This document shows, in pieces, positions 437 through 18,050 of a stretch of DNA of 48,090 nucleotides. The position numbers and the translations under genes are program-made. Numbering within the stretch: position 1 is the stretch's first letter; each line of letters opens with the position of its first letter. Origin of the DNA: an uncultured Magnetovibrio sp. (GTDB lineage Bacteria > Pseudomonadota > Alphaproteobacteria > Rhodospirillales > Casp-alpha2); assembly GCA_964576415.1 (NCBI GenBank), contig CAZNWX010000001.1, forward strand, positions 1 through 48,090, read 5' to 3'. The notes under the pieces were generated by a model that was not told the DNA's origin, searched no databases, and was given only the letters and a program-made list of their open reading frames with translations.

Positions 437-1684
437 ATGCCTGTCCCGATGTTAAAAACTCAGCCGCTTCATTCGGTTTTTGCTGTTCTTATCGGGGCGG
501 CAATACCTAGCCTTGTACTCGGGCGAGCCGTCTTCGCAGTGGTCGTTGGACTTAGTTTGCTGGCGTTACTATCGAGCGATCTCCGATCCCAGGCTTGGCG
601 CGAGGTCTTGGCCGCAAGCAAAACGACGGTAGGCTTCGCCGTGATTGCAACGCTGTTGCTTTGGGTGCTTAGTGCGCTCGGCTCAAATTTTATTATCCGG
701 TCTCTCGAGGCGGTGCTGAGAACCGGGGCTTTTGTCTGCATTGCTGTGATGGTCTTTGGCGCCCTGCGCCCCGAGCCTAGATTACAAAACCTGTGTTTGA
801 AGTCACTGGCGGTCGTCTCGCTGATTGGGGCCGGGATCGCCTTACTAGCCACAATGGTTATGCCGGAACTGTACTGGTGTCTTCGGCTTGAGGGTTGGTC
901 TTCAGTCCCCATTAATTCTGCCTATAAGGGTTACGCCGCTATTTCGGTTCTACTTGTCCCCATTCTGATCTGGATCTTTCTTGCTTTCCGCAACGTATGG
1001 CAGCTCGTCTCCCTTATGGCAGCTGCCTGCTTTCTCCTGCTGGTCTGGGAAACCTATAACCGCGCAGCAATCGCAGGTTTTATTGGAATTGTCTTCGCCT
1101 TGGCTCTAACGGTGTTTGTAAACGATGCAAGGCGTCTGGTGGCCATACTGTGTGTCGGATTGACGAGCCTGTTGACGGCCAGCGTCTTAATCTGGCTGAA
1201 GGTTACTAGGAATCATACAATAGATATTGCGCCAGAAACCTATTGGTATTTTCCTGTTTGGCTTATTGATTTCCAACGCCAGACTATATGGGATCATGCC
1301 TATCAGGTGTTTGAGACAGCCCCATGGTTTGGAGTAGGCGCTAACACTATAAACTTCACACCGGGGGCGAACCAACCACTACCTGGCAATGAGAGCCTTC
1401 ATATTATTCCTGCTCATCCGCACAATTGGACTATAGAAATAATGGCCGAAACCGGCGGACTTGGCCTTTTCGCTTTATTAGTAACGCTAGCTGTCATAGC
1501 AGTCTCCCTGATATTGAAATACCGAAAAACAGGGACCCCGCGCTATCTAATGGTGGTAGCAATGCTTGCAGGATATTGGGTCTCCGGCTTGTTTAATTTT
1601 TCCTACTGGTCAGCGTGGTGGCAAGTCTCTTTTGTTTTGGCGGTAGCTGTGGCCGCATCGCTCTCTAAAACGGGCGCAAGGTAG
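437..1684 (+). CDS. O-antigen ligase/polymerase family (Wzy_C/WaaL-like) integral membrane protein
   Basis: 415-aa multi-TM ORF. 'HIIPAHPHNWTIEIMAETGGLGLFALL' resembles the conserved His-containing periplasmic loop plus following TM helix of O-antigen ligase-type proteins. Confidence 0.75.
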   Translation: MPVPMLKTQPLHSVFAVLIGAAIPSLVLGRAVFAVVVGLSLLALLSSDLRSQAWREVLAASKTTVGFAVIATLLLWVLSALGSNFIIRSLEAVLRTGAFVCIAVMVFGALRPEPRLQNLCLKSLAVVSLIGAGIALLATMVMPELYWCLRLEGWSSVPINSAYKGYAAISVLLVPILIWIFLAFRNVWQLVSLMAAACFLLLVWETYNRAAIAGFIGIVFALALTVFVNDARRLVAILCVGLTSLLTASVLIWLKVTRNHTIDIAPETYWYFPVWLIDFQRQTIWDHAYQVFETAPWFGVGANTINFTPGANQPLPGNESLHIIPAHPHNWTIEIMAETGGLGLFALLVTLAVIAVSLILKYRKTGTPRYLMVVAMLAGYWVSGLFNFSYWSAWWQVSFVLAVAVAASLSKTGAR

Positions 1685-2033: not shown

Positions 2034-3281
2034 TTATACGTTGCGCAATCTTTGCATCAATCGTTCGCTTGCTAAGGCCGCCGAGGCAAAAGTCACCGTC
2101 ACACCGGAAAGGGCCTGACGTCCCAATTCAGAAGCATAGCCCGTAACAGGAAGTCCAATGATAAGCGCGAGGACAAAAGCGCAAAAAACCACTATAGATG
2201 CCCGCAGGCCTCGATCAGCAACGGCAATATCCCGATTAGGCACTAACAAACCAGCAAAGGCCCCGAAACCAAAACCAATTAAAATCGGAAATATGAAAAC
2301 CGTCAAAAACAAGGCAGCAATAAATTTTGGGTCAGCAAAATTCCAAAAATCCTCAAGCTTGGTTATCTCTTCTTCGGCTCCCTGCGTGAAAATAGTGCTT
2401 CTGTATTGTTCAAATACATGAGGATGGATTTCATGGACAAGAAAAACCAAGCCGACAAACACCATGACCGAAACGACCCCCGCTACCGATAAGCGCGTCA
2501 GCGCAAGAGCCCATACCTTTCCACCAGCTCGTCGCTTCTCCAAAAACGTCCAGAGAAAAAGAGACACGCCAACAATGAAACCTAAAAATTCAAAAGTAAT
2601 TTGAGCAAAAAAAGCGAATAGGGCCACATGCCACCATTTAATGGTTTTCACGACAACAAGATAGTAGACCAGAAGATTTAGAAAAAAGATCGCCCCGATA
2701 TCGTAGGGGTTAACACGCTCTGTAAACAGATAATGAGAAATCGGCCAATCGCTTCCTATTTTCATTAGGGCAAAATAACCGTTCAATAAAATGTCGGGCC
2801 AGCCAACAAGGGAAATCAAGACTATTGCGGTGAAAAGGGCGCGTGTTTCAGTCCTGTTGTATAAAGTCAGTGCTAAAATGGGTATGATGGACAACGCAAG
2901 CAGCTTCCAAATTACGGAACTAATTATGGGCACGATCACAGTCTGTAAGTAGCCCGCTTTGAAATGCGCTCCTTGTCCCCACCCCTTGCCAGGATAGAAC
3001 GGCGCAGATGAGGGGTCATTGACGACAAAGACAGCCAGCCCGTGGACTAGACCCTCGAGAGCGAGATAGGCAAGCCCAGCGCCAATCCGCATACCGGCTG
3101 GCAAACTGGGCTCTAGCAGAGCTCCGTAATGTTCTTCCAATAGGTATTCTCCAGACTGCAAAGCCTGAATTTCGGCTGATAAATTATTAGATTTAGACAG
3201 TATAAAGAACAGGCTGAAGATCAGGAATACGGCGGTTAAAACTATGGCCGAGATCACCGACCTATTTTCGGCTGGCGCCAT
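2034..3281 (-). CDS. Polytopic integral membrane protein of unknown function; candidate Wzy-type polymerase or GT-C-like transferase
   Basis: 415-aa ORF with roughly 10-12 hydrophobic segments and no soluble domain I recognise. It sits in a glycan locus near a polyprenol-phosphate GT2. Confidence 0.65.
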   Translation of the reverse strand: MAPAENRSVISAIVLTAVFLIFSLFFILSKSNNLSAEIQALQSGEYLLEEHYGALLEPSLPAGMRIGAGLAYLALEGLVHGLAVFVVNDPSSAPFYPGKGWGQGAHFKAGYLQTVIVPIISSVIWKLLALSIIPILALTLYNRTETRALFTAIVLISLVGWPDILLNGYFALMKIGSDWPISHYLFTERVNPYDIGAIFFLNLLVYYLVVVKTIKWWHVALFAFFAQITFEFLGFIVGVSLFLWTFLEKRRAGGKVWALALTRLSVAGVVSVMVFVGLVFLVHEIHPHVFEQYRSTIFTQGAEEEITKLEDFWNFADPKFIAALFLTVFIFPILIGFGFGAFAGLLVPNRDIAVADRGLRASIVVFCAFVLALIIGLPVTGYASELGRQALSGVTVTFASAALASERLMQRLRNV

Positions 3282-7060: not shown

Positions 7061-7942
7061 TTAGTTTCTACCCAACAAAATTTTTAGTGCGTTCCGCCCG
7101 CCAATTTCATTTGTTCCGGATGAGGATCGGGTGGATAGGTAGGCCGGATTTTCTGCTGAGGCCAATCGCATGACACCAAATGCGTCCGACGCGATCGTTG
7201 CTTTTTCTTGCGCGGTATTTGGTTGTGGTAATCTGAAATCATTGTCATCGCACTTGCGAAATACGTATGCTATCCCGACTTTTGGCCCATTTTTTGGGCT
7301 ATCATTTAATTGAAAAAATCTTTCGCCGTGGACTTCAGCAGAGAAAATTTTTTCGTAATTGTTTGCATAAGCCATGGCTTCGTAAAAAGATGGATTGAAA
7401 TTATAATAACCGTTTGTTCCTATCTGTTCTTGGAAAATAATCATCAAGCCATTTGGTGCACACATTCTGTGCATTGTTCGATAAGCCTCTGTTGCATGAA
7501 AGGCATGCTCATTATTGCCATAATCAGTCACCAAATCGAATTTTTGATCCGATATTAAACTAGGCACAGGCTCGTTAAGATCGATTGGAATGGCATTCCA
7601 ACGCATGCCTTCCGGCGTAATATTCTTCCCAGCTCCAGTAGCACCGCCACCAATATCCACACACGAATAATGCTCAACACCAAATAACTTATAAAAGTTT
7701 TCTGCGCTCATGCGATCAGCTGGGTATGTCGCTAAACGGGCAAAATTCGTCTGCTTGTAACGCTGAAGCCCACAGGCACGTGCCAAGCAGTCGAAGTCAT
7801 CTAGGTGCATGTGCAAGTCTTGAGCACCAAAGTCTAGGACAGCACGTATATTCTCATAGAACCCGCGATTAAAGAGCTCAACATTGAGCCGAGCAATTTC
7901 CAAACTCAATCCCATCTCAAGACCGTCATCCAATGTTAACAA
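7061..7942 (-). CDS. Putative class I SAM-dependent methyltransferase-like protein
   Basis: 'RAVLDFGAQDL' is motif-I-like. 'FDLVTDYGNNEHAF....YRTMHRMCAPNGLMII' resembles the post-II/III region of class I methyltransferases. Confidence 0.55.
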   Translation of the reverse strand: MLTLDDGLEMGLSLEIARLNVELFNRGFYENIRAVLDFGAQDLHMHLDDFDCLARACGLQRYKQTNFARLATYPADRMSAENFYKLFGVEHYSCVDIGGGATGAGKNITPEGMRWNAIPIDLNEPVPSLISDQKFDLVTDYGNNEHAFHATEAYRTMHRMCAPNGLMIIFQEQIGTNGYYNFNPSFYEAMAYANNYEKIFSAEVHGERFFQLNDSPKNGPKVGIAYVFRKCDDNDFRLPQPNTAQEKATIASDAFGVMRLASAENPAYLSTRSSSGTNEIGGRNALKILLGRN

Positions 7943-8056
7943 ATTTAAGCGTCGCCCAAGACCTTAATTGAGCGTCAACTTCCAGCGGGGTGTATAAGCA
8001 GTGTGCGTTAATCTGACAAGTGGAAGCAATTTGTTAGCTGGGACAAGCAGCTATAT

Positions 8057-8123
8057 TTCTTGACGTTCATGAGCTGAACGTTATCATGCATTCTTGATGT
8101 TCATGCGCTGAACGTTTCATGCG
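8057..8123 (+). promoter_or_regulatory. Tandem 34/33-bp direct repeat. Each copy carries a 7-5-7 inverted repeat that overlaps -35/-10-like hexamers. Candidate operator plus promoter of the regulator/antiterminator operon.
   Basis: Copy 1 (8057..8090) is TTCTTGACGTTCATGAGCTGAACGTTATCATGCA. Copy 2 (8091..8123) is TTCTTGATGTTCATGCGCTGAACGTTTCATGCG. Palindromes are ACGTTCA(8063..8069)-N5-TGAACGT(8075..8081) and ATGTTCA(8097..8103)-N5-TGAACGT(8109..8115). Promoter-like hexamers are TTGACG(8060..8065)-N16-TATCAT(8082..8087). Confidence 0.55.
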
Positions 8124-8176
8124 TATGAAAAGAAGGTGTTTCTAAGCTTTTCTGTGCCGGCACAAACGGCACGTCG

Positions 8177-8833
8177 ATGATACAGGTAGGGCTAGACTTG
8201 AAGAGTAACGAATCCAAAATTACGCTTGGCGTCCTGAACGTTATCCATCAGAGCCCAGAGGTTACCCAACGCTCAGTTGCGAAGGAACTTGGCATTGCGT
8301 TAGGTTTGGCCAATTCCTACCTCAAGCGTTGTATCAAAAAGGGCCTCGTAAAGGTCCGCCACGCGCCAACTAATCGTTACGCCTACTATCTAACGCCTCA
8401 GGGTTTTGCGGAAAAGACGCGGCTTACCGCAGAATACCTCTCGCAAGGCTATCATTTCTTTCGCATTACCCAGACCCAATGTAGTGAAATTTTTCGGATA
8501 TGCGAACTTCGTGGCTGGAATCGGATCGCGCTTCATGGCCTAACGGATGTAGCTGAAATTGCAGTCCTTAGCGCGAACAAACATAAAATATTGATCACTG
8601 GCATCGTTGATGAAACGACTGCGCTACCCGCTTACAATGGCGCCCCGATCGTCCGCAAGCTTTGCGATCTGGATGATTTCGACGCTTTGGTCGTTTCTGA
8701 TATTGGCAACCCTCAAGCGCGCTATGATGAAATTCGGAAAAGCGTTCCAATTGAGCGTATTCTTGTGCCGGCGATCCTTGGTGTTAATACAAATCCAAAG
8801 CATGTAGACAGAATTTATAGAGGCGCTCAATGA
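8177..8833 (+). CDS. Winged helix-turn-helix (MarR-like, EPS-associated type) transcriptional regulator with an extra C-terminal domain
   Basis: 'ITLGVLNVIHQSPEVTQRSVAKELGIALGLANSYLKRCIKKGLVKV....RYAYYLTPQGFAEK' is a wHTH with wing. About 110 further residues follow ('RIALHGLTDVAEIAV...ALVVSD', Rossmann-like). Its stop overlaps the next start (ATGA). Confidence 0.8.
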   Translation: MIQVGLDLKSNESKITLGVLNVIHQSPEVTQRSVAKELGIALGLANSYLKRCIKKGLVKVRHAPTNRYAYYLTPQGFAEKTRLTAEYLSQGYHFFRITQTQCSEIFRICELRGWNRIALHGLTDVAEIAVLSANKHKILITGIVDETTALPAYNGAPIVRKLCDLDDFDALVVSDIGNPQARYDEIRKSVPIERILVPAILGVNTNPKHVDRIYRGAQ

Positions 8834-9333
8834 ACCCCTGGTGCGTCGTCCGTTCCCATGCGCACGCAGAGGCCAAGGCCTGCAACCATCTTCAGCGCCA
8901 AGGGTTCGCGGTTTACTATCCAAAATTCCTTCGGCGTCGATCCCATGCCCGCAAGGTTGACTGGATCCCCTCGCCACTGTTCCCGCGTTATCTCTTCGTC
9001 CAAATTGACTTTGAAAAATCGCGCTGGCTAAGCATTTACTCCACCATCGGCGTAGCTAATCTGATTTGCTTCGGTGACCGGCCGCAAAGTTTGCCCGGCG
9101 AAATCGTCGCCGAGCTCCGTGCCTGCGAAGATGACAAGGGCTACGTTAATTTGCACAAACGTCAAAGCATGGAGATCGGCGAAAATGTTCGCATTCTCCA
9201 TGGCTCGTTTACCGACCACATCGCTAAGCTAGAGGGTTTGGACGATAAAGGTCGCGTGACTTTGCTGCTTCAGTTAATGGGGCAAAGTGTACGCATGAAA
9301 ACTTCCCTGAATAATTTGGTCGCCGCCGAGTAA
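8830..9333 (+). CDS. NusG paralog, RfaH-like operon-specific transcription antiterminator
   Basis: 'MNPWCVVRSHAHAEAKACNHLQRQGF...PLFPRYLFVQ.....IGVANLICFGDRPQSLPGEIV...GENVRILHGSF...GRVTLLLQLMG' has the same order of conserved blocks as E. coli RfaH ('W..........A...L.RQ...PLFPNYLFVEFD...GV..FVRFG..P..VP...G..V.I..G.F.......R..LLL.L'). Confidence 0.85.
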   Translation: MNPWCVVRSHAHAEAKACNHLQRQGFAVYYPKFLRRRSHARKVDWIPSPLFPRYLFVQIDFEKSRWLSIYSTIGVANLICFGDRPQSLPGEIVAELRACEDDKGYVNLHKRQSMEIGENVRILHGSFTDHIAKLEGLDDKGRVTLLLQLMGQSVRMKTSLNNLVAAE

Positions 9334-9390
9334 TTTGTTTCAGGGAAGATGGGCCACCACTGCTATCTGGTGAAGGCGTTTCACCTGGAC

Positions 9391-9402
9391 TGCGGTAGCG
9401 TG
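9391..9402 (+). promoter_or_regulatory. ops-like (operon polarity suppressor) element TGCGGTAGCGTG
   Basis: Matches E. coli ops GGCGGTAGCGTG at 11 of 12 positions, on the coding (non-template) strand. It lies 57 nt after the stop of the RfaH-like gene and 30 nt before ATG 9433 of the first biosynthetic gene. Confidence 0.5.
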
Positions 9403-9432
9403 GAAAAATTTTGGCACTGTGAAAAACCCAGC

Positions 9433-10452
9433 ATGACTTCTGACCAAGACTTTTCCTGGCGGGGCAAACAGATTTTTGTGACCGGCGCGGATGGTTTCAT
9501 CGGCTCTCATCTATGCGAGGCGCTGGTTGCCGCTGGCGCTGACGTAACGGCTTTGGCGCTATACAACTCATTCGACCAGCTGGGATGGCTGGACGATATT
9601 GCTGACGACGCTCGTCGTGCCATGAGATTTGTTCGCGGTGACATCCGCGACGCCGCGCAGATGGCCGCGCTCTGCCGTGGCCAGGACTATGTGTTTCATC
9701 TGGCGGCGCTGATTGCCATTCCTTATTCCTACGACGCCCCGTCAAGCTATGTGCAGACCAATGTCCAGGGCACCTTGAACATTCTACGTGGTGCTCTTGA
9801 CGCTGGTGTAAGCGGCGTCATCCACACGTCAACCAGCGAAGTCTATGGAACTGCGCAATTCACTCCCATTACCGAAGATCACCCCTTGCAGGGTCAGTCG
9901 CCCTATTCTGCCTCAAAAATCGGTGCTGATATGATGGCAGAATCTTTTGCGCGCTCTTTTGAACTGCCGGTAATCACTATGCGACCGTTCAACACCTATG
10001 GTCCTCGCCAATCGGAGCGCGCGGTCATCAGTACGATCATTCGTCAAATCATCGACGATCGCTGCGACAGCATCCACATCGGGGACACCTCGCCAACACG
10101 TGATTTCAACTATGTGGGCGATACTGCCAATGCCTTCATGAAAATCGCTCCCTTGATCCCCAAGCATGCCGGCAGCGCATTCAACGCCGGTAGCGGCCGA
10201 ATGTTTTCCATCGGAGAGATGATTGAGATGGCCGTCAAGCTTACCGACTGCTCTAAGCCCATTGTAAAGGATTCGGCGCGAATTCGCCCGGCCAAAAGTG
10301 AAGTTCTAGCATTGATGGCGGATGCTTCGCGCTTCAATGCTCTTTCTGGTTGGGCGCCGCAGACGTCTTTGGAGTCGGGCCTGGAGCTTACGGTGGAGTG
10401 GTGGCGGCAACGAATTGACGCAATCCGCTCCGACGCTGGGTATATGGTATAG
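9433..10452 (+). CDS. NAD-dependent nucleotide-sugar 4,6-dehydratase (LegB/extended SDR type)
   Basis: 'KQIFVTGADGFIGSHLCEALV' Rossmann motif, 'TSTSEVYG', and the catalytic pair in 'YSASKIGADMM'. An in-frame ATG at 9349 would add 28 Cys/His-rich residues, and the start choice is uncertain. Confidence 0.85.
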   Translation: MTSDQDFSWRGKQIFVTGADGFIGSHLCEALVAAGADVTALALYNSFDQLGWLDDIADDARRAMRFVRGDIRDAAQMAALCRGQDYVFHLAALIAIPYSYDAPSSYVQTNVQGTLNILRGALDAGVSGVIHTSTSEVYGTAQFTPITEDHPLQGQSPYSASKIGADMMAESFARSFELPVITMRPFNTYGPRQSERAVISTIIRQIIDDRCDSIHIGDTSPTRDFNYVGDTANAFMKIAPLIPKHAGSAFNAGSGRMFSIGEMIEMAVKLTDCSKPIVKDSARIRPAKSEVLALMADASRFNALSGWAPQTSLESGLELTVEWWRQRIDAIRSDAGYMV

Positions 10453-10461: not shown

Positions 10462-11622
10462 ATGATACCGCTCGCCGTCCCCAATCTTTGTGGCAATGAG
10501 GCCCGTTATTTACAGGAGTGCATCGACACGACCTTTGTGTCGACCGTCGGCAAATTCGTCGGCCGATTCGAAGAGATTGTCGCCGCCGCCGCTGGAAGTA
10601 AGAGCGCCGTGGCCCTGGCGTCAGGGACCTGCGGCCTGCATATGGCTCTACGCGCTGTCGGTGTTTGCCGGGATAATTTGGTGGTAACCCCGGACTTTAC
10701 CTTCATCGCATCAGCCAATGCTGTTGCACATTGCGGCGCGGTGCCCTGGCTAATGGATGTCGACGTCGACACTTGGAGCCTCGATGCCGGGCTTTTGGCC
10801 AAAACCTTGCGTGCCGAGACCGAGCAGCGCGCCAACGGCCTTTTTCATCGCCCGAGCGGTCGACGCGTTGCCGCCATCTTGCCGGTTTACACACTTGGTT
10901 GCCCCGCCGACATGGACTCTATTGTCTCGCTCGCCGGTGAATTTGGCCTGCCGGTGGTTGCTGACGCGGCCGCGGCGCTTGGCGCAACCTACAAAGGGCG
11001 CCCCCCCGGCGTCATGGGCGCTAACCTCTCCGTTTTCTCGTTTAACGGCAATAAAACAGTCACTGCAGGCGGTGGTGGTATTGTCGCCGGCGACGATCTG
11101 GCACTTGTGGCCAAGGTCAAACATCTTTCCACAACCGCGAGGCAAGGCGAAGACTACGAGCACGACGAGATCGGTTTTAACTATCGCATGACTAATCTGC
11201 AGGCCGCCGTCGGCGTCGCGCAGATGGAAATGCTAGATCAAATGGTAGCGGCTAAGCGCCGCATCCGCGCCCGTTACGACGCGGTATTTCAGGGCCTGCA
11301 GGGCCTTCGCATTTTCCCTGACCCTGAGTGGGCGGAGAGCGCCTGCTGGTTTTCCGGCGTTGTGTTTGAGAACCCTAAGCCGGGCTTGCTAAAGGCGATT
11401 CGCGGCGAATTGCGTCATGTCGGTATCGACGCTAGGCCTTTTTGGCAACCCATACATCGCCAGCCACCCTTCGCCGATGCGCCGACAGAGTTGACGGGGG
11501 TAAGTGAATCTCTTAAAGATGCGATCCTGACTCTACCTTGTTCGACCGGCCTAAGCGAGATCGACCAGGAAACAGTCATCCGGTCGACTTTCGATATTTT
11601 AAATAAGTCGCTCCAGTCCTAG
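10462..11622 (+). CDS. DegT/DnrJ/EryC1/StrS-family PLP-dependent sugar aminotransferase (LegC/PglE-like)
   Basis: 'MIPLAVPNLCGNEARYLQECI', 'SGTCGLHMALRA', 'FSFNGNKTVTAGGGG' (PLP lysine) and 'GFNYRMTNLQAAVGVAQ'. Confidence 0.9.
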   Translation: MIPLAVPNLCGNEARYLQECIDTTFVSTVGKFVGRFEEIVAAAAGSKSAVALASGTCGLHMALRAVGVCRDNLVVTPDFTFIASANAVAHCGAVPWLMDVDVDTWSLDAGLLAKTLRAETEQRANGLFHRPSGRRVAAILPVYTLGCPADMDSIVSLAGEFGLPVVADAAAALGATYKGRPPGVMGANLSVFSFNGNKTVTAGGGGIVAGDDLALVAKVKHLSTTARQGEDYEHDEIGFNYRMTNLQAAVGVAQMEMLDQMVAAKRRIRARYDAVFQGLQGLRIFPDPEWAESACWFSGVVFENPKPGLLKAIRGELRHVGIDARPFWQPIHRQPPFADAPTELTGVSESLKDAILTLPCSTGLSEIDQETVIRSTFDILNKSLQS

Positions 11623-11632
11623 CGTCGAGCTC

Positions 11633-12685
11633 ATGGAAAATTGGAAACAAACCCTTTTGCCCGCTGAGACCACCGTCCGCGACGCAATGGAGCGCCTTGG
11701 TCAGTCTCGCAGTCATATCCTTTTGGTAGTTGATGAGAAACAACGGTTGCTGGGCACTGTAACAGATGGGGACATCCGTCGCGGCTTGCTGGGGGGCATG
11801 GCGCTGGAGACTTCTATCGCCCAGGTCATGAACCCATCGCCTATTATTGCCACTCCGGAAATTCCCGCTTCCGAACAACTTGTGATGCTGCGGAAGTTCA
11901 GCATTATGCAATTGCCTATTGTCGACTCAGACAACTGCGTATCCGCTCTCGTTGGCATCGACGACCTGGTTACAATTCCAGAAACACTGGAAAATCCAGT
12001 CGTTATAATGGCGGGCGGGCTGGGCACCCGCCTGCGACCAATGACCGAGGACACCCCCAAACCTTTGCTGCCTGTAGGGGGGCGCCCCATCCTGGAAACC
12101 ATCATCGAGCAATTGACGGGCCATGGCCTCACCCGCATTTTCCTCTCCGTCAACTACAAGTCGGAAATGGTGCGTAAACATTTTGGTGATGGCTCTAACT
12201 TCGGCGCTGACATCCGTTATTTGGAAGAAGAAGATAGTTTGGGCACGGCAGGCCCGCTGGGCTTAATCGAGGACGTAGGCGAAGCGCCGTTGTTGGTCAT
12301 GAACGGCGATCTGCTTACAAAATTGAACTTCAAGGCGCTGCTGTCCTATCACCGGGAACTGGAGAGCCAAGTCACCGTATGCGTCCGGGACTTTGACATG
12401 CAGGTGCCATTTGGTGTTATCGAACAAGACAATAATCGTGTGCGCGCTATTGTTGAAAAACCTATTCATAAATTCCTGGTGAATGCAGGCATCTACGTCG
12501 TCGAACCGCACGTCGTGCGCGAAGTGCCAAGGGGCCAACGCCTAGATATGCCGGACCTCCTGTGTCAACTGATGGACAATGACCAAGCTGTCGCCGCGTT
12601 CCCAGTACATGAATACTGGCTTGACGTCGGGCGCATCGAGGATATCAGCCGTGCTGCTTCTGAATTCAAAAGCATTTTCGAATAA
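11633..12685 (+). CDS. CBS-domain sugar-1-phosphate nucleotidyltransferase (PtmE-like, GlcNAc-1-P guanylyltransferase type)
   Basis: Tandem CBS region ('VRDAMERL...LLVVDEKQRLLGTVTDGDIRR', 'QLPIVDSDNCVSALVGIDDL') followed by the 'VVIMAGGLGTRLRPMTEDTPKPLLPVGGRPILE' nucleotidyltransferase signature. Confidence 0.9.
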   Translation: MENWKQTLLPAETTVRDAMERLGQSRSHILLVVDEKQRLLGTVTDGDIRRGLLGGMALETSIAQVMNPSPIIATPEIPASEQLVMLRKFSIMQLPIVDSDNCVSALVGIDDLVTIPETLENPVVIMAGGLGTRLRPMTEDTPKPLLPVGGRPILETIIEQLTGHGLTRIFLSVNYKSEMVRKHFGDGSNFGADIRYLEEEDSLGTAGPLGLIEDVGEAPLLVMNGDLLTKLNFKALLSYHRELESQVTVCVRDFDMQVPFGVIEQDNNRVRAIVEKPIHKFLVNAGIYVVEPHVVREVPRGQRLDMPDLLCQLMDNDQAVAAFPVHEYWLDVGRIEDISRAASEFKSIFE

Positions 12686-12725
12686 TGTCGGTTGTTAGCC
12701 GAAATTTTCGCTTAGAGAGGGTCTG

Positions 12726-13892
12726 ATGACGCGCCAAGTGGCGGTTCTCAGTGTTGGTCGTTCCGATTTTGGCCGTTATTTGCCTGTGCTGCGTGAACTA
12801 AAGAATAATCCAAGCATTGAACTTCGGCTGATTGCGTCAGGTGGACATTTCTCTTCTCGCTCAGGAAATACTATCCACGAAGTGGAAGAGTCCGGCTTCG
12901 ATTGGGAACCTGGCTTTGCCGAGGACCTTTTAGGCGATAGCCCTGAAGACGTGGGTCAAGCCATCGGCAGGGCGGCGATTTGCTTAAGCCAAGCCTTCGC
13001 CATCCGGCGACCGGATCTTTTGGTTGTGCTTGGCGATCGCTTTGAAATGCTGTCAGGAGCCAGCGCAGCGCTTGGTTTCAATATTCCGGTGTTTCATATT
13101 TATGGGGGCTCCGTCACAGAGGGCGCCATAGACGAGCTTGTCCGCCATGCCCTAACTAAAATGAGCCACCTGCACTTTGTTTCATGTGAGCCTTATGCTC
13201 AACGTGTACGCCAGATGGGCGAAGAGGACTGGAGGGTTCATATTACCGGCGCACCGGGGCTCGACGATTTGAAGGCTATCGGCTCTCTGCCGCTCGATGA
13301 GCTCTCACAGTTTGTTGGCCTGAACCTCGAAAGACCGACTATTTTAGTCTGCTACCATCCTGTAACCCTGGAGCCTGGACAGGCAGGCCCACAGATTTCC
13401 AACCTGCTTGCCGCCATTGAGGGCCTCGACTATCAGATAATCTTGACCTATCCGAACATTGACCCCGGACACGAACCTGTGATTGACGCCATTGAAGCCT
13501 TTGCCGCGCGTCATTCTTCCCGTTCTCGGCTAATCCGGAACGCCGGCACTAGACGGTTCACCAGCCTGTTGAACTCTGTCGATGCCCTAGTTGGAAATTC
13601 GTCCAGCGGTATTGTCGAAGCCGCGACCTTCGCGCTCCCGGTGGTCAACATCGGCACCCGCCAAGATGGAAAAATCCGCGCCGCCAACATCATCGATACG
13701 GCCTACCAAACAGAAGCGATCCGAGTAGGATTGGACAAAGCGTTGAAATCGGAATTTCGCGCCGGTCTGGCGGGACTGGTCAACCCGAATGGAGATGGCC
13801 AAGCCGGCCCGCGCATTGCGCGCCTAATTGCCACGCAGAGCCTTGACGAACGGCTGTTGCGAAAAAAATTCGTCGACAGGCCCTACCTGTAA
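12726..13892 (+). CDS. Hydrolysing NDP-N-acetylhexosamine 2-epimerase (NeuC/LegG family), copy 1
   Basis: 'VLGDRFEMLSGASAA', 'HIYGGSVTEGAIDELVRHALTKMSHLHF', 'VGNSSSGIVEA' and 'NIGTRQDGK'. Confidence 0.9.
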   Translation: MTRQVAVLSVGRSDFGRYLPVLRELKNNPSIELRLIASGGHFSSRSGNTIHEVEESGFDWEPGFAEDLLGDSPEDVGQAIGRAAICLSQAFAIRRPDLLVVLGDRFEMLSGASAALGFNIPVFHIYGGSVTEGAIDELVRHALTKMSHLHFVSCEPYAQRVRQMGEEDWRVHITGAPGLDDLKAIGSLPLDELSQFVGLNLERPTILVCYHPVTLEPGQAGPQISNLLAAIEGLDYQIILTYPNIDPGHEPVIDAIEAFAARHSSRSRLIRNAGTRRFTSLLNSVDALVGNSSSGIVEAATFALPVVNIGTRQDGKIRAANIIDTAYQTEAIRVGLDKALKSEFRAGLAGLVNPNGDGQAGPRIARLIATQSLDERLLRKKFVDRPYL

Positions 13893-13927
13893 TTGCCATC
13901 AAGGCCCAAGATATTCGGAACCCAGCC

Positions 13928-14878
13928 GTGCAAAACGAAGTGACAAACCCCTTTAAGCGCATGATCCCATTGCCGATTTCTGCCCAGTCGGTCTACGATA
14001 AATTGAGCGCCAGCGACGCCTGCCTTATCGGTGACCCCGAGACGATGGCAGAGTCGGTCGCCTACTTGACAGATGGCGTACCTGGCTCGCTGGCTTTCTG
14101 GGACAAACCGGGACTGGACCCGGTGCGCCAGTCCCGTGCTGCGATCGTTTTCATCGCTGAAGAGATAAAGCCTGCGCCAGGCCGCGCGTTCATTCTTGTT
14201 GATGATCCGCGATGGTATTTCATTGAGATTGTTTCAGAGATGTTTCATGATCACGAAAAAGGAGCGCACCCTAGCGTAATTGTAGGAACAAACGTCACGT
14301 TGCCGACTTCAGTAATCGTCGGCGCCAACACCTATATCGGCGATAACGTGACGATCGGTGAGAATTCGCGGATTGGCAACAACTGCATCATTCACTCCGA
14401 TACCGTTATTGGCAGCTATTCTTGGATCAAAGATGCATGCATGATTGGCTCACACGGTCTTTCCTTCCATCGTAGTGCCAATGGCGAACTGGCTCGGTTT
14501 CCGCATCTGGGAGCAACGATCATCGAAGACTACGTCGAGCTTGGCACCGGCAGTTGCGTGGTCCGCGGCATGCTCTCCAACACTGAAATCCGCGCCCGCA
14601 CAAAAATAGGCAATTTAGTTAACATTGGTCATGGCTGTATCATCAACGAAGACTGCTGGATTTCCGGCTCCGCCTCTATCGGCGGCCACGCCGTATTAGG
14701 CAAGCGGGTATCGCTTGCAATGTCGGTGACCGTCGCCAATAGCGTCACCATCGGCCCCGATTCCCGTGTCGGAATCGGGTCAGTGGTCACCAAAACAGTT
14801 CCTGCGGACTCGAAATTATTCGGATGCCCCGCGCAACCCCTTAGGACCCTGAAACCGTTCGGCCCAACGCCTCGATAA
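13928..14878 (+). CDS. LpxD-like left-handed beta-helix N-acyltransferase (candidate acyl-ACP-dependent amino-sugar N-acyltransferase)
   Basis: Has an LpxD-type N-terminal domain ('GSLAFWDKPG....AAIVFIAEE....FILVDDPRWYF') followed by hexapeptide repeats. 'GSHGLSFHRSANGELARFPHLGATIIEDYVELGTGSCVVRG....TEIRARTKIGNLVNIGHG' parallels E. coli LpxD 'GADGFGY...[24 protein letters not shown]...IDNQCQIAHN'. The start is GTG 13928 or ATG 13961. Confidence 0.8.
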   Translation: MQNEVTNPFKRMIPLPISAQSVYDKLSASDACLIGDPETMAESVAYLTDGVPGSLAFWDKPGLDPVRQSRAAIVFIAEEIKPAPGRAFILVDDPRWYFIEIVSEMFHDHEKGAHPSVIVGTNVTLPTSVIVGANTYIGDNVTIGENSRIGNNCIIHSDTVIGSYSWIKDACMIGSHGLSFHRSANGELARFPHLGATIIEDYVELGTGSCVVRGMLSNTEIRARTKIGNLVNIGHGCIINEDCWISGSASIGGHAVLGKRVSLAMSVTVANSVTIGPDSRVGIGSVVTKTVPADSKLFGCPAQPLRTLKPFGPTPR

Positions 14879-15008
14879 ATTTATGCGGACTTTACTCGGG
14901 TATTACGACTTGAATAATCTATCTGAAGCCTTAATTACCGAGTGAGCGGCGGTTTTATCAACGGCTGTTGGCCGATCTCACAAGCACTTGCCTCTGAAAG
15001 GACCCGTC

Positions 15009-16355
15009 ATGAACGTTATCCGGCCCAAAGACAGGAACCTGATTTTCTTGGTGCACCCCGGCCACATTGCCGATGAAGAACCCTACATGCCTTACGAGTG
15101 CCTATGGCTAGCTCGCTTCCTGCTTAACAACGGCTACGAAGTCCAGATCATAGACCAGCGGCTCGAGGAACATTGGCAACAACGTATCTCAGACCGCAAA
15201 GATGAAGTGCTCTGGGTGGGTGTGACAATCATAACTGGGCCGCAAATCAAGTATGCGTTGGACACAGCTAAATTTGTTCGGTCAATCCCTCGCAACATTC
15301 CGATGGTTTGGGGCGGCTGGCACGCTACTTTCGTGGCGGGGAACACGGTCATCCATCCCCTTGTTGACTATGTCGTTGCGGGTATTGCCGAATTAAAAGT
15401 CGTCGAATTGACCGAGTATATTCGCGGAGGTGAGGTTGGCCCGCCCCCGACGACGCCTGGCATCCTGCATAAGCAAGGGAACCTGGACTATCAGGTGAAC
15501 AAAGAAGTTTATGTCGAGTCCGATTCGCTCCCTGCTTACCATCTGATAGATATCGACGCCTACCGTTCAGAAAATAACGTTGCGGGCATGATTACTTCGC
15601 GAGGCTGTCCGTTCCGCTGTAATTACTGCGTGATCCAGCAGATTCGGTTTTCTAACCGGGCGATAGACTCCGTAGTCGATGAAATAGAGTTCCTGGTTGG
15701 CGACAACGGCTTTGAAGTTATTCGCTTTGCGGATGGCCTATTTTTCGCACAAAGAGCGCGTGTGGAGAAGATTATCGGCGAGTGTCAAAAGCGTGGTTTA
15801 AAATTTAAATGGCAATCGAACGTTCGTCCAGAAACCTTCCGTCGTTGGAGCCAGGAAGGCATGGAGTGGTTGGTTGAGTCAGGTCTTGATTACGTGGCTT
15901 CGGGTGTAGAATCCGGTTCTGAATTTATGTTACAGCGTATTCAGAAGGACGCCACTGTCGACGATATTTATTTCACGACCGAAATTACCGAAAAATACGG
16001 TATTGGTCTGACCCTGAACTTTCTAAGCGGTCTGCCGCATGAAACAATTGATGATCTCAAATTCACCGCCGAAGTGATTGAGAAGTTGACGACGATGCAC
16101 TCACGGCTGCGCATTATTAATCCGCTGTACCGTCCGTTCCCAGGTGCGCCGACTTATAATGAAATGCTTAAGCTCGGCTGGACCCCGCCGCAGAGCCTAG
16201 AAGAATGGGCGGAAACCACCCAATGGAATATGGGGATTGAGAAAGTGGATCCCTTCCCTTGGATGGAAAAGAACGAATTTGACGAATATGTCAACTACTT
16301 CACCACCTCCGCGTTGGGCCGTGAACGCGAACCCGTGTTGCTAGAACGTCAGTAA
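15009..16355 (+). CDS. B12-binding-domain (class B) radical SAM enzyme
   Basis: N-terminal cobalamin-binding-like domain ('LIFLVHPG....YEVQIIDQRL....WVGVTIITGPQI') and the 'SRGCPFRCNYCVIQ' CxxxCxxC cluster motif. ATG 15009 is preceded by AAGGA. Confidence 0.85.
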   Translation: MNVIRPKDRNLIFLVHPGHIADEEPYMPYECLWLARFLLNNGYEVQIIDQRLEEHWQQRISDRKDEVLWVGVTIITGPQIKYALDTAKFVRSIPRNIPMVWGGWHATFVAGNTVIHPLVDYVVAGIAELKVVELTEYIRGGEVGPPPTTPGILHKQGNLDYQVNKEVYVESDSLPAYHLIDIDAYRSENNVAGMITSRGCPFRCNYCVIQQIRFSNRAIDSVVDEIEFLVGDNGFEVIRFADGLFFAQRARVEKIIGECQKRGLKFKWQSNVRPETFRRWSQEGMEWLVESGLDYVASGVESGSEFMLQRIQKDATVDDIYFTTEITEKYGIGLTLNFLSGLPHETIDDLKFTAEVIEKLTTMHSRLRIINPLYRPFPGAPTYNEMLKLGWTPPQSLEEWAETTQWNMGIEKVDPFPWMEKNEFDEYVNYFTTSALGREREPVLLERQ

Positions 16356-16502
16356 CATCGGCCGCTAGACACCAGCCCTCGAGTCAGGGTTTACTGATCT
16401 CTCTGCACCGCGATCGGCTGTCTTATTGCGCCACCGACTTATTTCGCCCGCCGAAGTGGTTTTCCACCAGACCGCGCTGATCTTCTCGCTTTAAAAATAG
16501 AC

Positions 16503-18020
16503 ATGGCTAAAACACCTTCAGCTTCCGAAAGCACGATCGGTGAGCTCATCCGGCACTGGGGTCGAATGTCAGCCGATAAACCTGCCATTATCTGTAACAA
16601 TGAAGCCTTTTCTTATGGTGCTTTTGTTGAGGAACTAGATGCCATCCTCCGCCACCTCGATGAAGCAGGAATTGCCAGGGGTGGGCGCGTGGTCATCGCC
16701 ATCAGTGACAAAAAGGCCTTCATCGTCGCCATGCTTGGCGTGATGTCCGCCGGCGCCGTTGCGGTTCCAGTAGTGGGCGAAAGCGCCGCCGCCATTGTGG
16801 ACATCGCTGACCATACTGACGCTGAATTAATGCTGCATGACGGCGAGGATGAAGATCTATTCGGTGACCTGCCCAGGCAGCGCTATCCGTTCACCAGCGA
16901 CACCGTGATCGGCGATGCTATGCGTCTTCATTCAGATATTGCCGATCCCGCAGTGATCTTGTTCACCTCTGGCACGCAAAGTCACCGCAAAGGCGTGGTG
17001 TTGTCTCACGCCAATCTCAACGCCACCGGCGATTACCTCAATCGCTTCCTCTATGTTGATCCAGACATCCGCGAATACGTTATCGCGCCGCCTTTCCACG
17101 CCTTTGGTTTTGGTCGGGTTCGCAGCGTGCTCATGGCCGGCGGCACGGTGGTATTTGACGCTGGCGAATTCAACGCACTAAGGGCGATCCGGGGCATTGA
17201 AACACATGCCTGCAATTCTCTTTCCTGCGTGTCCGCGACAATCATTTTGCTAGTCGAGAAATTCCGCGGGCGCACTGAGAGTTTTGCACAAAATATCCGT
17301 TGGATGGAAATCGGTAGTCAACCGATGCAGCGCGACCAAAAAAAACTAATCTGCGACACCTTTGCTAGCGCTCGAACGGCATTTAATTACGGCATGACCG
17401 AGGCCTCGCGCTCAACGTTGATAGATTTTAATCAAGAGAGAAGTCGGCTGGACTCTAGTGGCCGGGCCGCGCCAGGAACCGAGCTCCGCATATGCGATGA
17501 ACAGCGCCAACTAATGACCACCGGGAAGCTCGGTGTCATAGAAATGCGCGGGCCGCACATCGCCCTTGGCTACTGGCGCGACGATACGCTGTGGGCCAAG
17601 GCCTGTGTGGACGGATGGTTCCGCTCTGACGATGTCGGATATATGGACAACGAAGGTTACCTGTATTATGTGGGCCGTAGCGATGATCTTTTGAATGTCG
17701 GAGGTGAGATTGTCGCGCCGACAGACCTTGAATACGCTCTGCGCCAGCGCCTCGGCGATGAAGAGTTCATAATCCTGGGCGAAAGCGACCGCATCCGCGG
17801 TGAAGTGCCGGTAATCTGCTTCGAGCGTAGCGATGCCACCAATCTGGAATGGCCGGAGTTGATGAAAACGCTGATCGGCGCCGTACCGAATAAATTTCTT
17901 CCGCGCAAAGGTTACGTGGCCCCGCAATTCCCACGCACTGCAGTCGGCAAAATCAAACGCGCCCAATTACGGAACCAGATCAAATTCGGCGAGCTAACTG
18001 AAATCGAACGAACTAACTGA
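16503..18020 (+). CDS. AMP-dependent synthetase/ligase (acyl-CoA/acyl-ACP ligase, ANL superfamily)
   Basis: Core motifs 'ILFTSGTQSHRKGVVLSH', 'NYGMTEA', 'GWFRSDDVGYMDNEGYLYYVGRSDDLLNVGGEIV' and the C-terminal 'PRTAVGKIKR'. Confidence 0.9.
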   Translation: MAKTPSASESTIGELIRHWGRMSADKPAIICNNEAFSYGAFVEELDAILRHLDEAGIARGGRVVIAISDKKAFIVAMLGVMSAGAVAVPVVGESAAAIVDIADHTDAELMLHDGEDEDLFGDLPRQRYPFTSDTVIGDAMRLHSDIADPAVILFTSGTQSHRKGVVLSHANLNATGDYLNRFLYVDPDIREYVIAPPFHAFGFGRVRSVLMAGGTVVFDAGEFNALRAIRGIETHACNSLSCVSATIILLVEKFRGRTESFAQNIRWMEIGSQPMQRDQKKLICDTFASARTAFNYGMTEASRSTLIDFNQERSRLDSSGRAAPGTELRICDEQRQLMTTGKLGVIEMRGPHIALGYWRDDTLWAKACVDGWFRSDDVGYMDNEGYLYYVGRSDDLLNVGGEIVAPTDLEYALRQRLGDEEFIILGESDRIRGEVPVICFERSDATNLEWPELMKTLIGAVPNKFLPRKGYVAPQFPRTAVGKIKRAQLRNQIKFGELTEIERTN

Positions 18021-18050
18021 ACCCCGCCCTAGTTCGACTAAAAAATCAAT

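Follow-up and report, generated by a model that had tools for sequence, protein, structure and literature searches.

The 48,090-nt stretch of DNA analyzed here (the window) probably carries a compact regulatory cassette in which a promoter/operator, a DNA-binding regulator, an RfaH-like factor, and a hairpin joined to an ops element stand ahead of a 38-kb array of sugar genes. The DNA comes from an uncultured Magnetovibrio sp. (GCA_964576415.1, contig CAZNWX010000001.1, positions 1 to 48,090, forward strand; GTDB lineage Bacteria; Pseudomonadota; Alphaproteobacteria; Rhodospirillales; Casp-alpha2), and the cassette recurs in many Alphaproteobacteria, including Rhodospirillales, Bradyrhizobium, Nitrobacter, Pseudolabrys, Hyphomicrobium, and others. 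Its anatomy, conservation, covariation, and spacing are matters of observation.

The ops-like element, TGCGGTAGCGTG, lies on the + strand at 9391..9402, 57 nt past the stop codon of the paralog gene as originally noted, and 31 nt ahead of the ATG of the first cargo gene. It is the sole match in the window with at most one mismatch to GGCGGTAGCGTG. The original estimate that an exact 11-mer is expected 0.02 times was reproduced; matches with at most one mismatch are expected about 0.19 times per window and at least one occurs in 18 of 100 shuffles, so an 11-of-12 match is weak on its own. The decisive evidence, drawn from sequence comparison, is conservation. The core, GCGGTAGC, is found 48-102 nt (median 67) past the rfaH-like stop codon and on the same strand in 71 of the 79 related alphaproteobacterial loci with enough sequence, and this spacing holds whatever gene comes after. 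Likewise, in the leaders of three syntenic orthologs (66-69%; an 88%-identical relative is not among them), no intergenic block is better conserved than the motif. Conservation in the leader position was thus found in relatives, and it argues that paralog and motif form a functional pair, as had been supposed, rather than a coincidence. Across 60 clade sequences, positions 2-9 never change and position 10 varies freely; T11 is retained in 54 sequences and G12 in 51. This pattern mirrors function in E. coli, where RfaH binding requires bases 3-8 and pausing requires T11/G12 (PMC5995543). The pause would be expected at U11 (9401), 12 nt past the base of the predicted hairpin. In the fold of the window leader, the ops RNA pairs with upstream sequence. 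Pairing of the kind seen in the Bacteroides "escape duplex" was rejected across loci (6.90 paired bases vs 7.11 with the upstream sequence shuffled).

The 12-mer first described is real but it is only part of the element, which as a whole consists of hairpin plus ops and spans about 40 nt. The predicted nascent-RNA hairpin (+ strand, 9366..9389) has its 5' arm at 9366..9374, a GGCGU loop at 9375..9379, and its 3' arm at 9380..9389, from which T9386 bulges out; the clade consensus for this 3' arm, TTCACCTGGA in the window, is TTCACCCGGA. The hairpin is found in both the MFE and centroid folds of the leader. Taken in full, the window leader does not exceed shuffled sequence in stability (z = -0.23). 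The distance from stem to U11 is 12 nt in the window and 11-12 nt in the clade. MAFFT leader alignments lost the register of the 5' arm because loop lengths vary, and were replaced by a 14-sequence in-register seed and Infernal alignment. In the resulting alignment of 60 distinct sequences, which was fitted to the structure, 88.3% of cells are paired vs 32-54% when slid, and double-sided changes number 33 vs 14.6 in shuffles, with 0 of 500 shuffles reaching 33. Roughly 50 of 589 stem cells are G-U, a pairing open to this strand only. Because the five inner pairs of the stem are constant, they are uninformative on pairing. Covariance model R1, built over 44 positions from the 10-bp hairpin and ops, has one match in the window (9363..9405, 40.8 bits, E = 2.5e-10). 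An Rfam search of the window site and of 8 related loci found no known RNA family, and JUMPstart (RF01707), which scored 60 bits on the E. coli control, had no match in 7900..9700 at E up to 10 or in the 8 related loci at E up to 1.

Gene 8830..9333 (+ strand) encodes a 167-aa RfaH-like NusG paralog with an NGN domain and a KOW domain, and the RfaH block order first read in it (PLFPRYLFV, GVANLICFGDRPQSLP, GENVRILHGSF...GRVTLLLQLMG) is all present in the translation. Pfam NusG (PF02357) matches residues 4-96 with 55.8 bits. HMM placement within NCBIfam ranks RfaH (TIGR01955) as the top family with 103.5 bits over the full length, followed by UpxY (60.1), NusG (44.8), and LoaP (29.8); the RfaH and NusG models align through residues 156-160. 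RfaH is also the best PDB match, and clade members carry the name RfaH in public sources. The description "RfaH-like" holds for the best family, but several defining RfaH features fail: the curated RfaH cut-offs are not reached (103.5 vs 144.5 for TIGR01955; 85.5 vs 124 for NF006534), the autoinhibition residue E48 is absent (S in the window; A, R, or S in the clade), and the gene does not stand alone, as it overlaps the regulator gene and ends 57 nt before an ops site. The equivalent of R138, the salt-bridge partner of E48 in RfaH, is kept in 115 of 116 clade sequences. In E. coli RfaH, the side chains contacting ops are K10, H20, R23, and R73 (PMC5995543). Within the corresponding patch K16, R23, Q24, T72, G74, and V75 are nearly invariant in the clade, R23 being kept in 110/116, and H20 is kept in 64/116 with N in 50. 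Two of the four contacts are replaced, K10 by H or Q and R73 by I, V, or F, and therefore ops recognition is not identical to that in E. coli.

The AF2 model of the paralog (mean pLDDT 88.2) has an NGN domain and a KOW beta-barrel C-terminal domain. Active RfaH (8phk_P) and NusG align to the full-length model, and autoinhibited RfaH only to its N-terminal domain. A beta-barrel C-terminal domain is likewise predicted for a Bradyrhizobium clade member. Since AF2 gives one state only and one alignment was used in both the window and Bradyrhizobium runs, the barrel is a prediction, not a measurement. As modeled, the beta-barrel and the missing E48 run counter to the present view, in which ops dependence goes together with fold-switching and with action in trans.

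Upstream of the paralog lie a putative promoter/operator and a regulator gene. Two 26-nt direct repeats on the + strand (8057..8082 and 8091..8116) each contain the palindrome GTTCA-N5-TGAAC (8065..8079 and 8099..8113), together with a promoter-like TTGACG (8060..8065) and TATCAT (8082..8087) separated by 16 nt. In 72/75 loci the region ahead of the regulator gene has the palindrome, and in 72-74 of 75 it has TTGACGTTCA; the three syntenic orthologs keep CTTGACGTTCA-N5-TGAAC, TATnnT, and then a second palindrome. This pattern suggests that 8057..8116 acts as a promoter. The regulator (+ strand, 8177..8833, 218 aa) is a MarR-like winged-helix protein by Pfam HTH_24 and MarR_2, its HTH spanning residues about 14-93; NCBIfam MarR_EPS (TIGR04176) gives 69.8 bits, short of the cut-off of 88, and a PDB sequence search with the C-terminal half (~120 residues) returned no match. 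Its stop overlaps the start of the rfaH-like gene (ATGA, 8830..8833), and a homolog is directly upstream of rfaH on the same strand in 75/80 loci. The interval between rfaH and LegB in the window has no promoter-like and no terminator-like site by a scan with an E. coli-type promoter consensus; a promoter that this consensus does not recognize may lie inside the 3' end of rfaH. A terminator-like hairpin separates rfaH from the ops hairpin in only 6/72 loci, which does not support a general need for a separate promoter. The window element follows two regulator genes and is probably internal to the transcript.

The first cargo gene (+ strand, 9433..10452) encodes a 339-aa LegB-like NAD-dependent 4,6-dehydratase. 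Its true start is ATG 9433, not ATG 9349: the alignment to the LegB model TIGR04180 begins only at residue 42 of ORF 9349, gene callers assign 339-341 aa in relatives, the frame is closed upstream of the start in LegB-first relatives L001, L013, and L030, and in orthologs the region around 9349 is not conserved and the 9349 extension carries frame-breaking indels. The motif is consequently non-coding, and position 9433, once given as the end coordinate of the regulatory region, was corrected to the A of the real LegB start codon. The Shine-Dalgarno sequence there is weak (-1.5 kcal/mol); many window genes are equally weak, so that a missing Shine-Dalgarno, considered as an RfaH hallmark, is uninformative here.

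Behind LegB, about 36 further co-directional glycan-biosynthesis genes fill 10462..47898 on the + strand; they include a nonulosonic-acid pathway, an RfaE-like enzyme, a split transketolase, radical-SAM enzymes, reductases, and methyltransferases. The + strand run from 8177 to 47898 noted at the outset is real, as nearly all + strand ORFs have sugar-pathway Pfam matches and the overlapping - strand ORF that was tested had none. Co-direction and short gaps (the largest being 29868..30222 and 31436..31721) suggest a single operon, and 10462..47898 is presumed to be the target of the antiterminator, which would, as proposed originally, drive read-through of more than 35 genes. Inside the cargo, intrinsic-terminator-like sites are no more frequent than expected by chance, which would leave Rho as the source of any need for antitermination; internal promoters, too, are at chance level. 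PADLOC defence models found nothing meaningful in the window, a DNA search of a plasmid collection returned distant LegB matches only, and a literature search with the motif string returned unrelated primer matches only.

The glycan genes downstream of the cassette vary between loci, those of the window forming a 38-kb nonulosonic-acid cluster, and in most loci the element lies 10-120 nt before the first polysaccharide gene. Of 68 copies of the element in metagenomes, 18 lack an rfaH gene immediately before them and stand ahead of other polysaccharide genes; at the matched site, 14 of these 18 score at least 19 bits with the hairpin and ops model. The notion of a self-contained pair of antiterminator and site fails on these copies, and the regulator and its operator also belong to the cassette. 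The stand-alone sites likely receive the factor in trans, in addition to its action at the home site.

The mechanism that best explains these findings, and that we consider likely, is proposed as follows; pausing, binding, antitermination, the transcription start site, and autoregulation are inferred parts of it. RNA polymerase would start at the cassette promoter, which is overlapped by the two GTTCA-N5-TGAAC operators, and transcribe the regulator and rfaH-like genes. It would then meet ops about 68 nt beyond the rfaH stop codon. The G2, T11, and G12 flanks of ops fit the consensus pause, which would last longer because the hairpin folds within the RNA exit channel, 12 nt behind the 3' end. 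Through its N-terminal domain the RfaH-like protein would bind the exposed non-template GCGGTAGC, and it may also contact the invariant CACCC of the upstream duplex (-20 to -16). The bound factor would then stay on the polymerase and exclude NusG and Rho, so that the long cluster is transcribed. The RfaH-like protein, and probably the regulator too, would also serve stand-alone hairpin-ops sites at other polysaccharide loci.

Recruitment through the RNA hairpin, in the manner of LoaP, is the strongest alternative and an unlikely one. The paralog would here bind GGGUGA...UCACCC, leaving the ops core mainly as a pause signal. LoaP, also a NusG paralog, uses both of its domains to bind a hairpin in the leader RNA (PMC12691694), the predicted free beta-KOW domain could take part in such binding, and the invariance of the inner five pairs exceeds what a generic pause hairpin needs. 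However, the central ops bases 3-8 are invariant though dispensable for pausing in E. coli (PMC5995543), and this points to direct reading of these bases. At each pair of the stem, conservation is higher in the 3' arm than in the 5' arm (16.2 vs 11.5 bits for the arms), and in Mesorhizobium the stem is shifted and TCACCC retained; this asymmetry and this retention fit the reading of a DNA sequence better than that of a hairpin shape. Moreover, the loop is variable in both sequence and length (4 to 9 nt across the clade), and the equivalent region in Bacteroides is read as duplex DNA, not RNA (PMC11685472).

Less probable still is that hairpin and ops work without the paralog, as a signal for pausing or attenuation, for RNA processing or stability, or as a site for NusA or the housekeeping NusG, the proximity of rfaH then reflecting shared locus ancestry. 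Diverse polymerases pause at ops in the absence of RfaH, the site being a model case of the consensus pause (PMC5995543), and the two key contact residues that differ in the clade also fit such a role. Against it, element and paralog occur together in 71/79 loci with variable cargo and tight spacing, the element is absent from three more distant paralog clades, and pausing alone leaves the conservation of bases 3-8 unexplained.

The inverted repeat GGGTGA...TCACCC adjoins a regulator gene and might be a duplex DNA operator for a dimeric regulator such as the MarR-like neighbor. This is very improbable, given that the half-sites are 4 to 9 nt apart, a DNA palindrome would be mismatched at the G-U cells, the repeat keeps one orientation with respect to the genes, and the regulator already has a palindrome of its own, with fixed spacing, ahead of the cassette. 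Finally, a chance match or a motif within the coding region of LegB can be dismissed for practical purposes, for although the expectation of 0.19 per window and the open ORF 9349..10452 would allow it, 71 loci and three orthologs conserve the motif, the frame is closed in relatives, and indels fall near 9349.

Returning to the proposed mechanism of ops-dependent loading, a further and more speculative reading, possible but rather doubtful, is that the clade represents an extant intermediate in RfaH evolution. Its members would combine a constitutive beta-type C-terminal domain and no E48-type autoinhibition with dependence on a canonical ops core, aided by a pause hairpin and an upstream CACCC, and with a gene fixed about 70 nt upstream of its home site. 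Newly made protein would be released beside the polymerase paused on its own transcript, giving co-translational loading in cis with spill-over to sites in trans. If so, sequence-specific ops recognition preceded fold-switching, and did not arise alongside it as PMC7593976 proposes, and the split between cis-acting monomorphic and trans-acting metamorphic factors (PMC13015549) would be incomplete.

According to Wang et al. 2020, E. coli is the only organism in which RfaH recruitment has been worked out. Current contrasts set the hairpin-less type-2 ops of RfaH against the hairpin-assisted opsX of Bacteroides (Saba et al. 2024, PMC11685472), and the trans-acting, fold-switching, ops-dependent RfaH against cis-acting, monomorphic, ops-independent relatives (PMC13015549). 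The clade mixes these categories, with a canonical ops, a pause hairpin, and an over-conserved arm, a gene upstream of its site and yet stand-alone sites, and a predicted beta C-terminal domain. It broadens a mechanism familiar from enteric bacteria by a new arrangement of the parts, and offers a natural test of whether ops recognition needs autoinhibition. The cassette would provide two-level control in compact form, with an initiation operator and an elongation loader, and appears portable across very different glycan clusters. Covariance model R1 is a ready tool for mapping alphaproteobacterial RfaH regulons, including those of Bradyrhizobium and Nitrobacter, two genera with surface glycans of importance to symbiosis and ecology.

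Among known systems, RfaH of E. coli and Salmonella is alike in being the best family and best PDB match, in the identical non-template core GCGGTAGC with T11 and G12 kept, and in the placement of ops in the leader of long polysaccharide operons. It differs in that position 1 of ops is T here, that rfaH is monocistronic in E. coli and here belongs to a cassette directly upstream of a site, that K10, R73, and E48 are replaced and a beta-barrel is predicted instead of the autoinhibitory alpha-hairpin, and that the TIGR01955 equivalog cut-off is not reached. JUMPstart (RF01707) shares the architecture, its E. coli stem ending 12 nt before U11 as in the window, whereas the stem here is longer and of other sequence and RF01707 is blind to the element.

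In Bacteroides, UpxY is likewise a NusG paralog encoded with its own polysaccharide operon (PMC11685472), and opsX is a multipartite signal of about 40 nt made of non-template DNA and an upstream region encoding a pause hairpin, a likeness of architecture only; the 3' arm asymmetry here fits its upstream duplex DNA reading. The window paralog scores 60.1 with the UpxY HMM (cut-off 100), its partner is a MarR-like regulator with no UpxZ, and its core is the canonical RfaH ops. The Bacteroides site lies upstream of upxY, so that the paralog is within its own target, whereas the site here is downstream of the gene; the paralog gene thus does lie upstream of its own site, as first noted, and UpxY and PrfaH have the reverse order. 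PrfaH of IncX plasmids is an RfaH-like paralog co-transcribed with its target operon and provided with an ops-like site (PMC11880322), but that site is upstream of the prfaH ATG, its crystal structure was described as RfaH-like, and its target is a type IV secretion operon (PMC11880322).

LoaP of Bacillota is also a NusG paralog adjoining a long biosynthetic operon, with a required leader hairpin and a second operon served in trans (PMC12691694); it differs by its UNCG RNA hairpin, its NusA antagonism at intrinsic terminators, and its lack of ops (PMC12691694), and the window paralog scores 29.8 against a cut-off of 125 with the LoaP model NF033641 and faces a variable loop. The monomorphic beta-RfaH proteins of Idiomarina and Pseudidiomarina, described in a preprint without mention of Alphaproteobacteria (PMC13015549), share an AF2 beta-type C-terminal domain, the loss of some ops contacts, and a position beside a long LPS-type operon. 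They are proposed to act ops-free and in cis, whereas the clade described here has a conserved ops and hairpin past the gene and stand-alone copies of the element elsewhere.

The RfaH-like gene at 8830..9333 encodes a 167-aa protein whose translation contains all of the sequence blocks quoted in the original prediction, and an ops-like motif (TGCGGTAGCGTG) is located at 9391..9402 (+), 57 nt 3' of its stop. The window by itself is no more than suggestive, because the E. coli 12-mer with at most one mismatch is expected 0.19 times per window and an exact 11-mer 0.02 times, the latter agreeing with the earlier estimate. A protein search returned 409 relatives of the RfaH-like protein, many labelled RfaH by their sources, and a scan in which each species was represented by a single genome gave at least 589 loci encoding a relative. 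The best 80 of these (42-53% identity) were retained; their labels are for the most part Rhodospirillales, Bradyrhizobium, Nitrobacter, Pseudolabrys, Xanthobacteraceae, Hyphomicrobium, and uncultured Alphaproteobacteria. Of the best 80, 79 extend far enough downstream to be scored, and 71 of these have the exact core GCGGTAGC in the same orientation, 48-102 nt (median 67, interquartile range 57-73) 3' of the rfaH-like stop; one additional locus has the core with one mismatch. Cultured carriers of the cassette include Bradyrhizobium sp. ma5 (NZ_CP170156.1) and Nitrobacter sp. TKz-YC01 (NZ_CP181167.1). Three syntenic orthologs (66-69% identity) share the order regulator, rfaH, ~97-nt gap, LegB, and the best-conserved block of their leaders is GGCGTTTCACCCGGACTGCGGTAGCGTGGAAAAATT; the proposal thereby survives the refuting condition named in the original prediction, a motif not conserved in orthologous leaders. 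The original observation is confirmed, and the core of its interpretation, a linked paralog and ops site heading a long glycan array with the gene 5' of its own site, is supported.

Among distant plasmid-borne paralogs (34-39% identity), the hairpin-ops element (hairpin plus ops core, ~40 nt) is present at that of Mesorhizobium and absent at those of Sulfitobacter, a Bradyrhizobium plasmid, and Sphingobium. Contigs binned as Udaeobacter, Acidiferrales, Hydrogenedens, and a 'Bordetella parapertussis' MAG (loci L038, L040, L067, and L075) bear the alphaproteobacterial cassette at 45-50% identity, probably through mis-binning or possibly through horizontal transfer. One Rhodospirillales genome (L003) has a tRNA gene at 3021..3092, ~300 nt 5' of the cassette regulator gene, as might be expected if the glycan locus were an island.

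Leaders anchored on the core give the consensus tTCACCCGGAcTGCGGTAGCnTGg, 5' of which (T)CCGGGTGA and TCACCCGG(A) form the two arms of a stem with a 4-9-nt loop. The MFE and centroid folds of the window leader both pair 9366..9374 with 9380..9389 (+), leaving T9386 bulged. A covariance model seeded with 14 in-register leaders has a single match in the window (9363..9405, 40.8 bits, E = 2.5e-10) and a single strong match directly 3' of rfaH in 62 of the best 80 of at least 589 loci. The sole copy in L070 is on the opposite strand (1603..1643, -), ~2.4 kb 5' of the rfaH-like gene, and a second, weaker copy lies 3' of the first in L047 (4534..4578) and L043 (5286..5331).

The covariation alignment, which had been fitted to the structure, has 88.3% of cells paired vs 32-54% with the partner slid, and 33 double-sided changes vs 14.6 in shuffles, with 0 of 500 shuffles reaching the observed number. 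Compensatory change occurs in five of the ten stem pairs, and the five inner pairs never vary. As an inverted repeat, GGGTGA...TCACCC might also be read as a duplex DNA operator; because ~50 cells of the stem alignment are G-U pairs, a pairing possible only on this strand, and because the loop is variable, the alignment argues for an RNA hairpin instead.

Within ops (n=60), positions 2-9 never vary, position 10 is unconstrained, and T11 and G12 are found in 54 and 51, respectively. This conservation matches the functional dissection of E. coli ops, in which RfaH binding requires bases 3-8 and pausing requires T11/G12 (PMC5995543). The 3' arm of the hairpin is conserved above the 5' arm at every pair (16.2 vs 11.5 bits), with CACC invariant. 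In E. coli, polymerase covers 14-15 bp and RfaH protects a further 6-7 bp of upstream duplex (PMC5995543); the invariant CACCC, at -20 to -16 relative to U11, falls within those 6-7 bp. At the Mesorhizobium plasmid locus (L205, 4040..4073; 34%-identical paralog), which reads TCACCCGGAAGTGCGGTAGC, the stem is displaced: it is formed by CTTCCGG and CCGGAAG and leaves TCAC in the loop, so that the TCACCC sequence is retained although its pairing is lost. Because of its excess conservation, its retention at this locus, and its position inside the RfaH-protected duplex, the 3' arm appears to be read as sequence besides forming the hairpin. Directly 3' of ops (9403..9420), GTGGAAAAATTyTGG is conserved in an alignment with close orthologs and weakly clade-wide (TGGnAAAnTTC).

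Translation of LegB from ATG 9349 would put the ops motif inside a coding region, and this is ruled out by reading frames closed 5' of the LegB start in the LegB-first loci L001, L013, and L030, by frame-shifting indels in the unconserved region around 9349 in the syntenic orthologs, and by LegB relatives called at 339-341 aa, equal to a start at ATG 9433. The LegB model alignment begins at residue 42 of ORF 9349, and on these comparisons the motif is non-coding and lies in the leader, as originally placed. The element is conserved although the first gene after it differs widely between loci (n=60): this gene is Polysacc_synt_2 in 19, epimerase/dehydratase in 18, and GFO/IDH/MocA in 15; AsnB-like, ABC-transporter, NeuB, and other genes are also found there.

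A MarR-like protein of 218 aa is encoded at 8177..8833 (+; HTH_24 and MarR_2 matches; MarR_EPS 69.8, below cut-off) by a gene whose stop overlaps the rfaH start in the window. In 75 of the best 80 of at least 589 loci, a homolog immediately precedes rfaH in the same orientation. No Pfam, NCBIfam, or PDB-sequence match was found for its C-terminal ~120 residues (~95-218). The whole protein, this part included, is conserved with the cassette in those 75/80 loci, and the C-terminal part may be a ligand-sensing domain setting when the cassette fires. Two 26-nt direct repeats (8057..8082 and 8091..8116) each contain the palindrome GTTCA-N5-TGAAC, and the first overlaps a promoter-like TTGACG, 16 nt, TATCAT (8060..8087), the sole good promoter-like site near the cassette. 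The palindrome is present 5' of the regulator gene in 72/75 loci, mostly as two copies 26-27 nt apart, and TTGACGTTCA in 72-74/75; the syntenic orthologs retain CTTGACGTTCA-N5-TGAAC, followed by TATnnT and a second palindrome. The original anatomy was thus correct in its paralog/ops pair and incomplete in leaving out the hairpin, the MarR-like gene, and the operator palindrome.

The rfaH-LegB interval of the window contains no promoter-like and no terminator-like site, and the corresponding stretch has a terminator-like hairpin with a T-tract in only 6 of 72 loci. The simplest reading is a single transcription unit, in which a transcript would start at the operator-controlled promoter and cross both regulator genes and the hairpin-ops into the cargo.

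The cargo comprises ~37 co-directional genes from 9433 to 47898. Nonulosonic-acid pathway genes encode LegB, a DegT aminotransferase, a CBS-NTP-transferase, two 2-epimerases, two NeuB synthases, and a CMP-sugar cytidylyltransferase. Tailoring genes encode PglD-like and other acyltransferases, a formyltransferase, a PIG-L deacetylase, two B12-radical-SAM enzymes, an AMP-binding enzyme, and a HisF/HisH-like pair; an RfaE-like kinase/cytidylyltransferase, a split transketolase, two SPASM radical-SAM enzymes, RmlD-like reductases, and methyltransferases are also present. The doubled NeuB-type synthase and UDP-GlcNAc 2-epimerase-type genes (12726..13892, 18287..19294, 21208..22218, and 22215..23378) suggest two nonulosonic-acid branches within one cluster. 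The B12-binding radical-SAM and AMP-binding genes (14988..16355, 16503..18020, and 27835..29868) lie amid the sugar pathway, and an 88%-identical relative has a small PP-binding ORF called beside the AMP-binding gene; together these suggest unusual C-methylation or N-acylation of the sugar. The RfaE-like PfkB kinase/cytidylyltransferase, transketolase pair, and SPASM genes (34507..36207, 38865..40675, and 42797..45624) make up a second module for sugar modification, located in the array's distal third.

Promoter-like and terminator-like sites within the cargo show no excess over chance level. The cargo may form one operon in need of antitermination, and any polarity in it would need to act through Rho, as polarity does in E. 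coli. The original interpretation was overstated on read-through; we infer antitermination here. A terminator-like hairpin at 31566..31583, readable on both strands and located in one of the two largest gaps (31436..31721), could mark a boundary within the array or be a barrier that the antiterminator would bypass.

Scanning metagenomes for TCACCCGRANTGCGGTAGC gave 80 loci. Sixty-eight copies have at least 650 nt upstream, with rfaH directly 5' in 50 and not in 18; at the matched site, the hairpin-ops model gives 14 of these 18 a score of 19.5-52 bits, and three resemble chance matches. Genuine stand-alone copies precede or lie within CpsB/CapC, Bac_transf, GFO/IDH/MocA, NTP_transferase, and AsnB-like polysaccharide genes. 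The operator palindrome occurs 70-200 nt 5' of 5/15 stand-alone copies, vs a chance expectation of ~0.4 over the 400 kb of sequence in these loci. At one of these loci (L094), palindromes lie 98 and 71 nt 5' of a hairpin-ops at 12038..12082 (-), as two copies 27 nt apart like those of the cassette. L087, L127, and L139 likewise have a palindrome directly 5' of a stand-alone hairpin-ops, with no regulator genes between. Because of these stand-alone copies and the palindromes accompanying 5/15, the paralog and regulator probably serve a small regulon in trans besides the home site, and to call the cassette self-contained was an overstatement.

The RfaH-like protein matches Pfam NusG PF02357 (55.8 bits). 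HMM placement among NusG paralogs gave RfaH TIGR01955 as the top NCBIfam match, full length at 103.5 bits and below the curated cut-off of 144.5, ahead of UpxY (60.1), NusG (44.8), and LoaP (29.8). The nearest solved structures are E. coli RfaH (E = 4e-10) and then NusG (E = 3e-5). At contact residues taken from the E. coli dissection (PMC5995543; E. coli numbering), K16 (R16 in E. coli), R23, Q24, T72, G74, and V75 are almost invariant among 116 clade sequences. Position 20 is H or N, K10 is replaced by H or Q, Q13 by A, G, or S, R73 by I, V, or F, the HTTT loop by R-W-R-S with W66 invariant, and the autoinhibition residue E48 by A, R, or S.

An AF2 model built with the clade alignment (mean pLDDT 88.2) has the KOW domain as a beta-barrel (strands 119-159). 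Its alignment with active RfaH (8phk_P) and with NusG spans the full length, but that with autoinhibited RfaH (5ond, 2oug) is confined to the N-terminal domain. A Bradyrhizobium member gave the same beta-barrel, from a shared alignment and so not independently. The modelled protein would be 'monomorphic' under the classification of a preprint (PMC13015549) that proposes action in cis without ops for such proteins, with Idiomarina and Pseudidiomarina as examples and Alphaproteobacteria not mentioned. Three features, the HMM score relative to its cut-off, E48, and gene organisation, place the protein outside E. coli-type RfaH, its contact residues are kept in part, and the state of its C-terminal domain is a prediction; the system would work like RfaH/ops.

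The E. coli JUMPstart control scores 60 bits with Rfam RF01707, and its 5-bp stem ends 12 nt before U11. The window has the same spacing (stem end 9389 to U11 9401, 12 nt), and the clade has 11-12 nt. Such spacing is that of hairpin-stabilised (class I, his-type) pauses. The alphaproteobacterial element is an architectural counterpart of JUMPstart and not a member of RF01707, because that model has no match in the window at E up to 10 or in eight related loci at E up to 1. The Bacteroides opsX element of ~40 nt combines non-template DNA, upstream duplex DNA, and a NusA-stabilised pause hairpin (Saba et al., PMC11685472). Alphaproteobacteria hold 18% of rfaH genes, with envelope-biogenesis neighbours noted, one cluster tied to an HTH regulator, and a recruitment mode known for E. 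coli only (Wang et al., 2020). No earlier description of an alphaproteobacterial hairpin-ops was found in open-access literature text. The tight stop-to-ops spacing is compatible, as speculation, with new protein being released beside polymerase paused on the same transcript. For UpxY and IncX PrfaH, the site lies 5' of the paralog gene and the factor thereby boosts its own transcription, whereas in the window the gene precedes the site; expression of the regulators would therefore be independent of antitermination, with the cargo alone gated.
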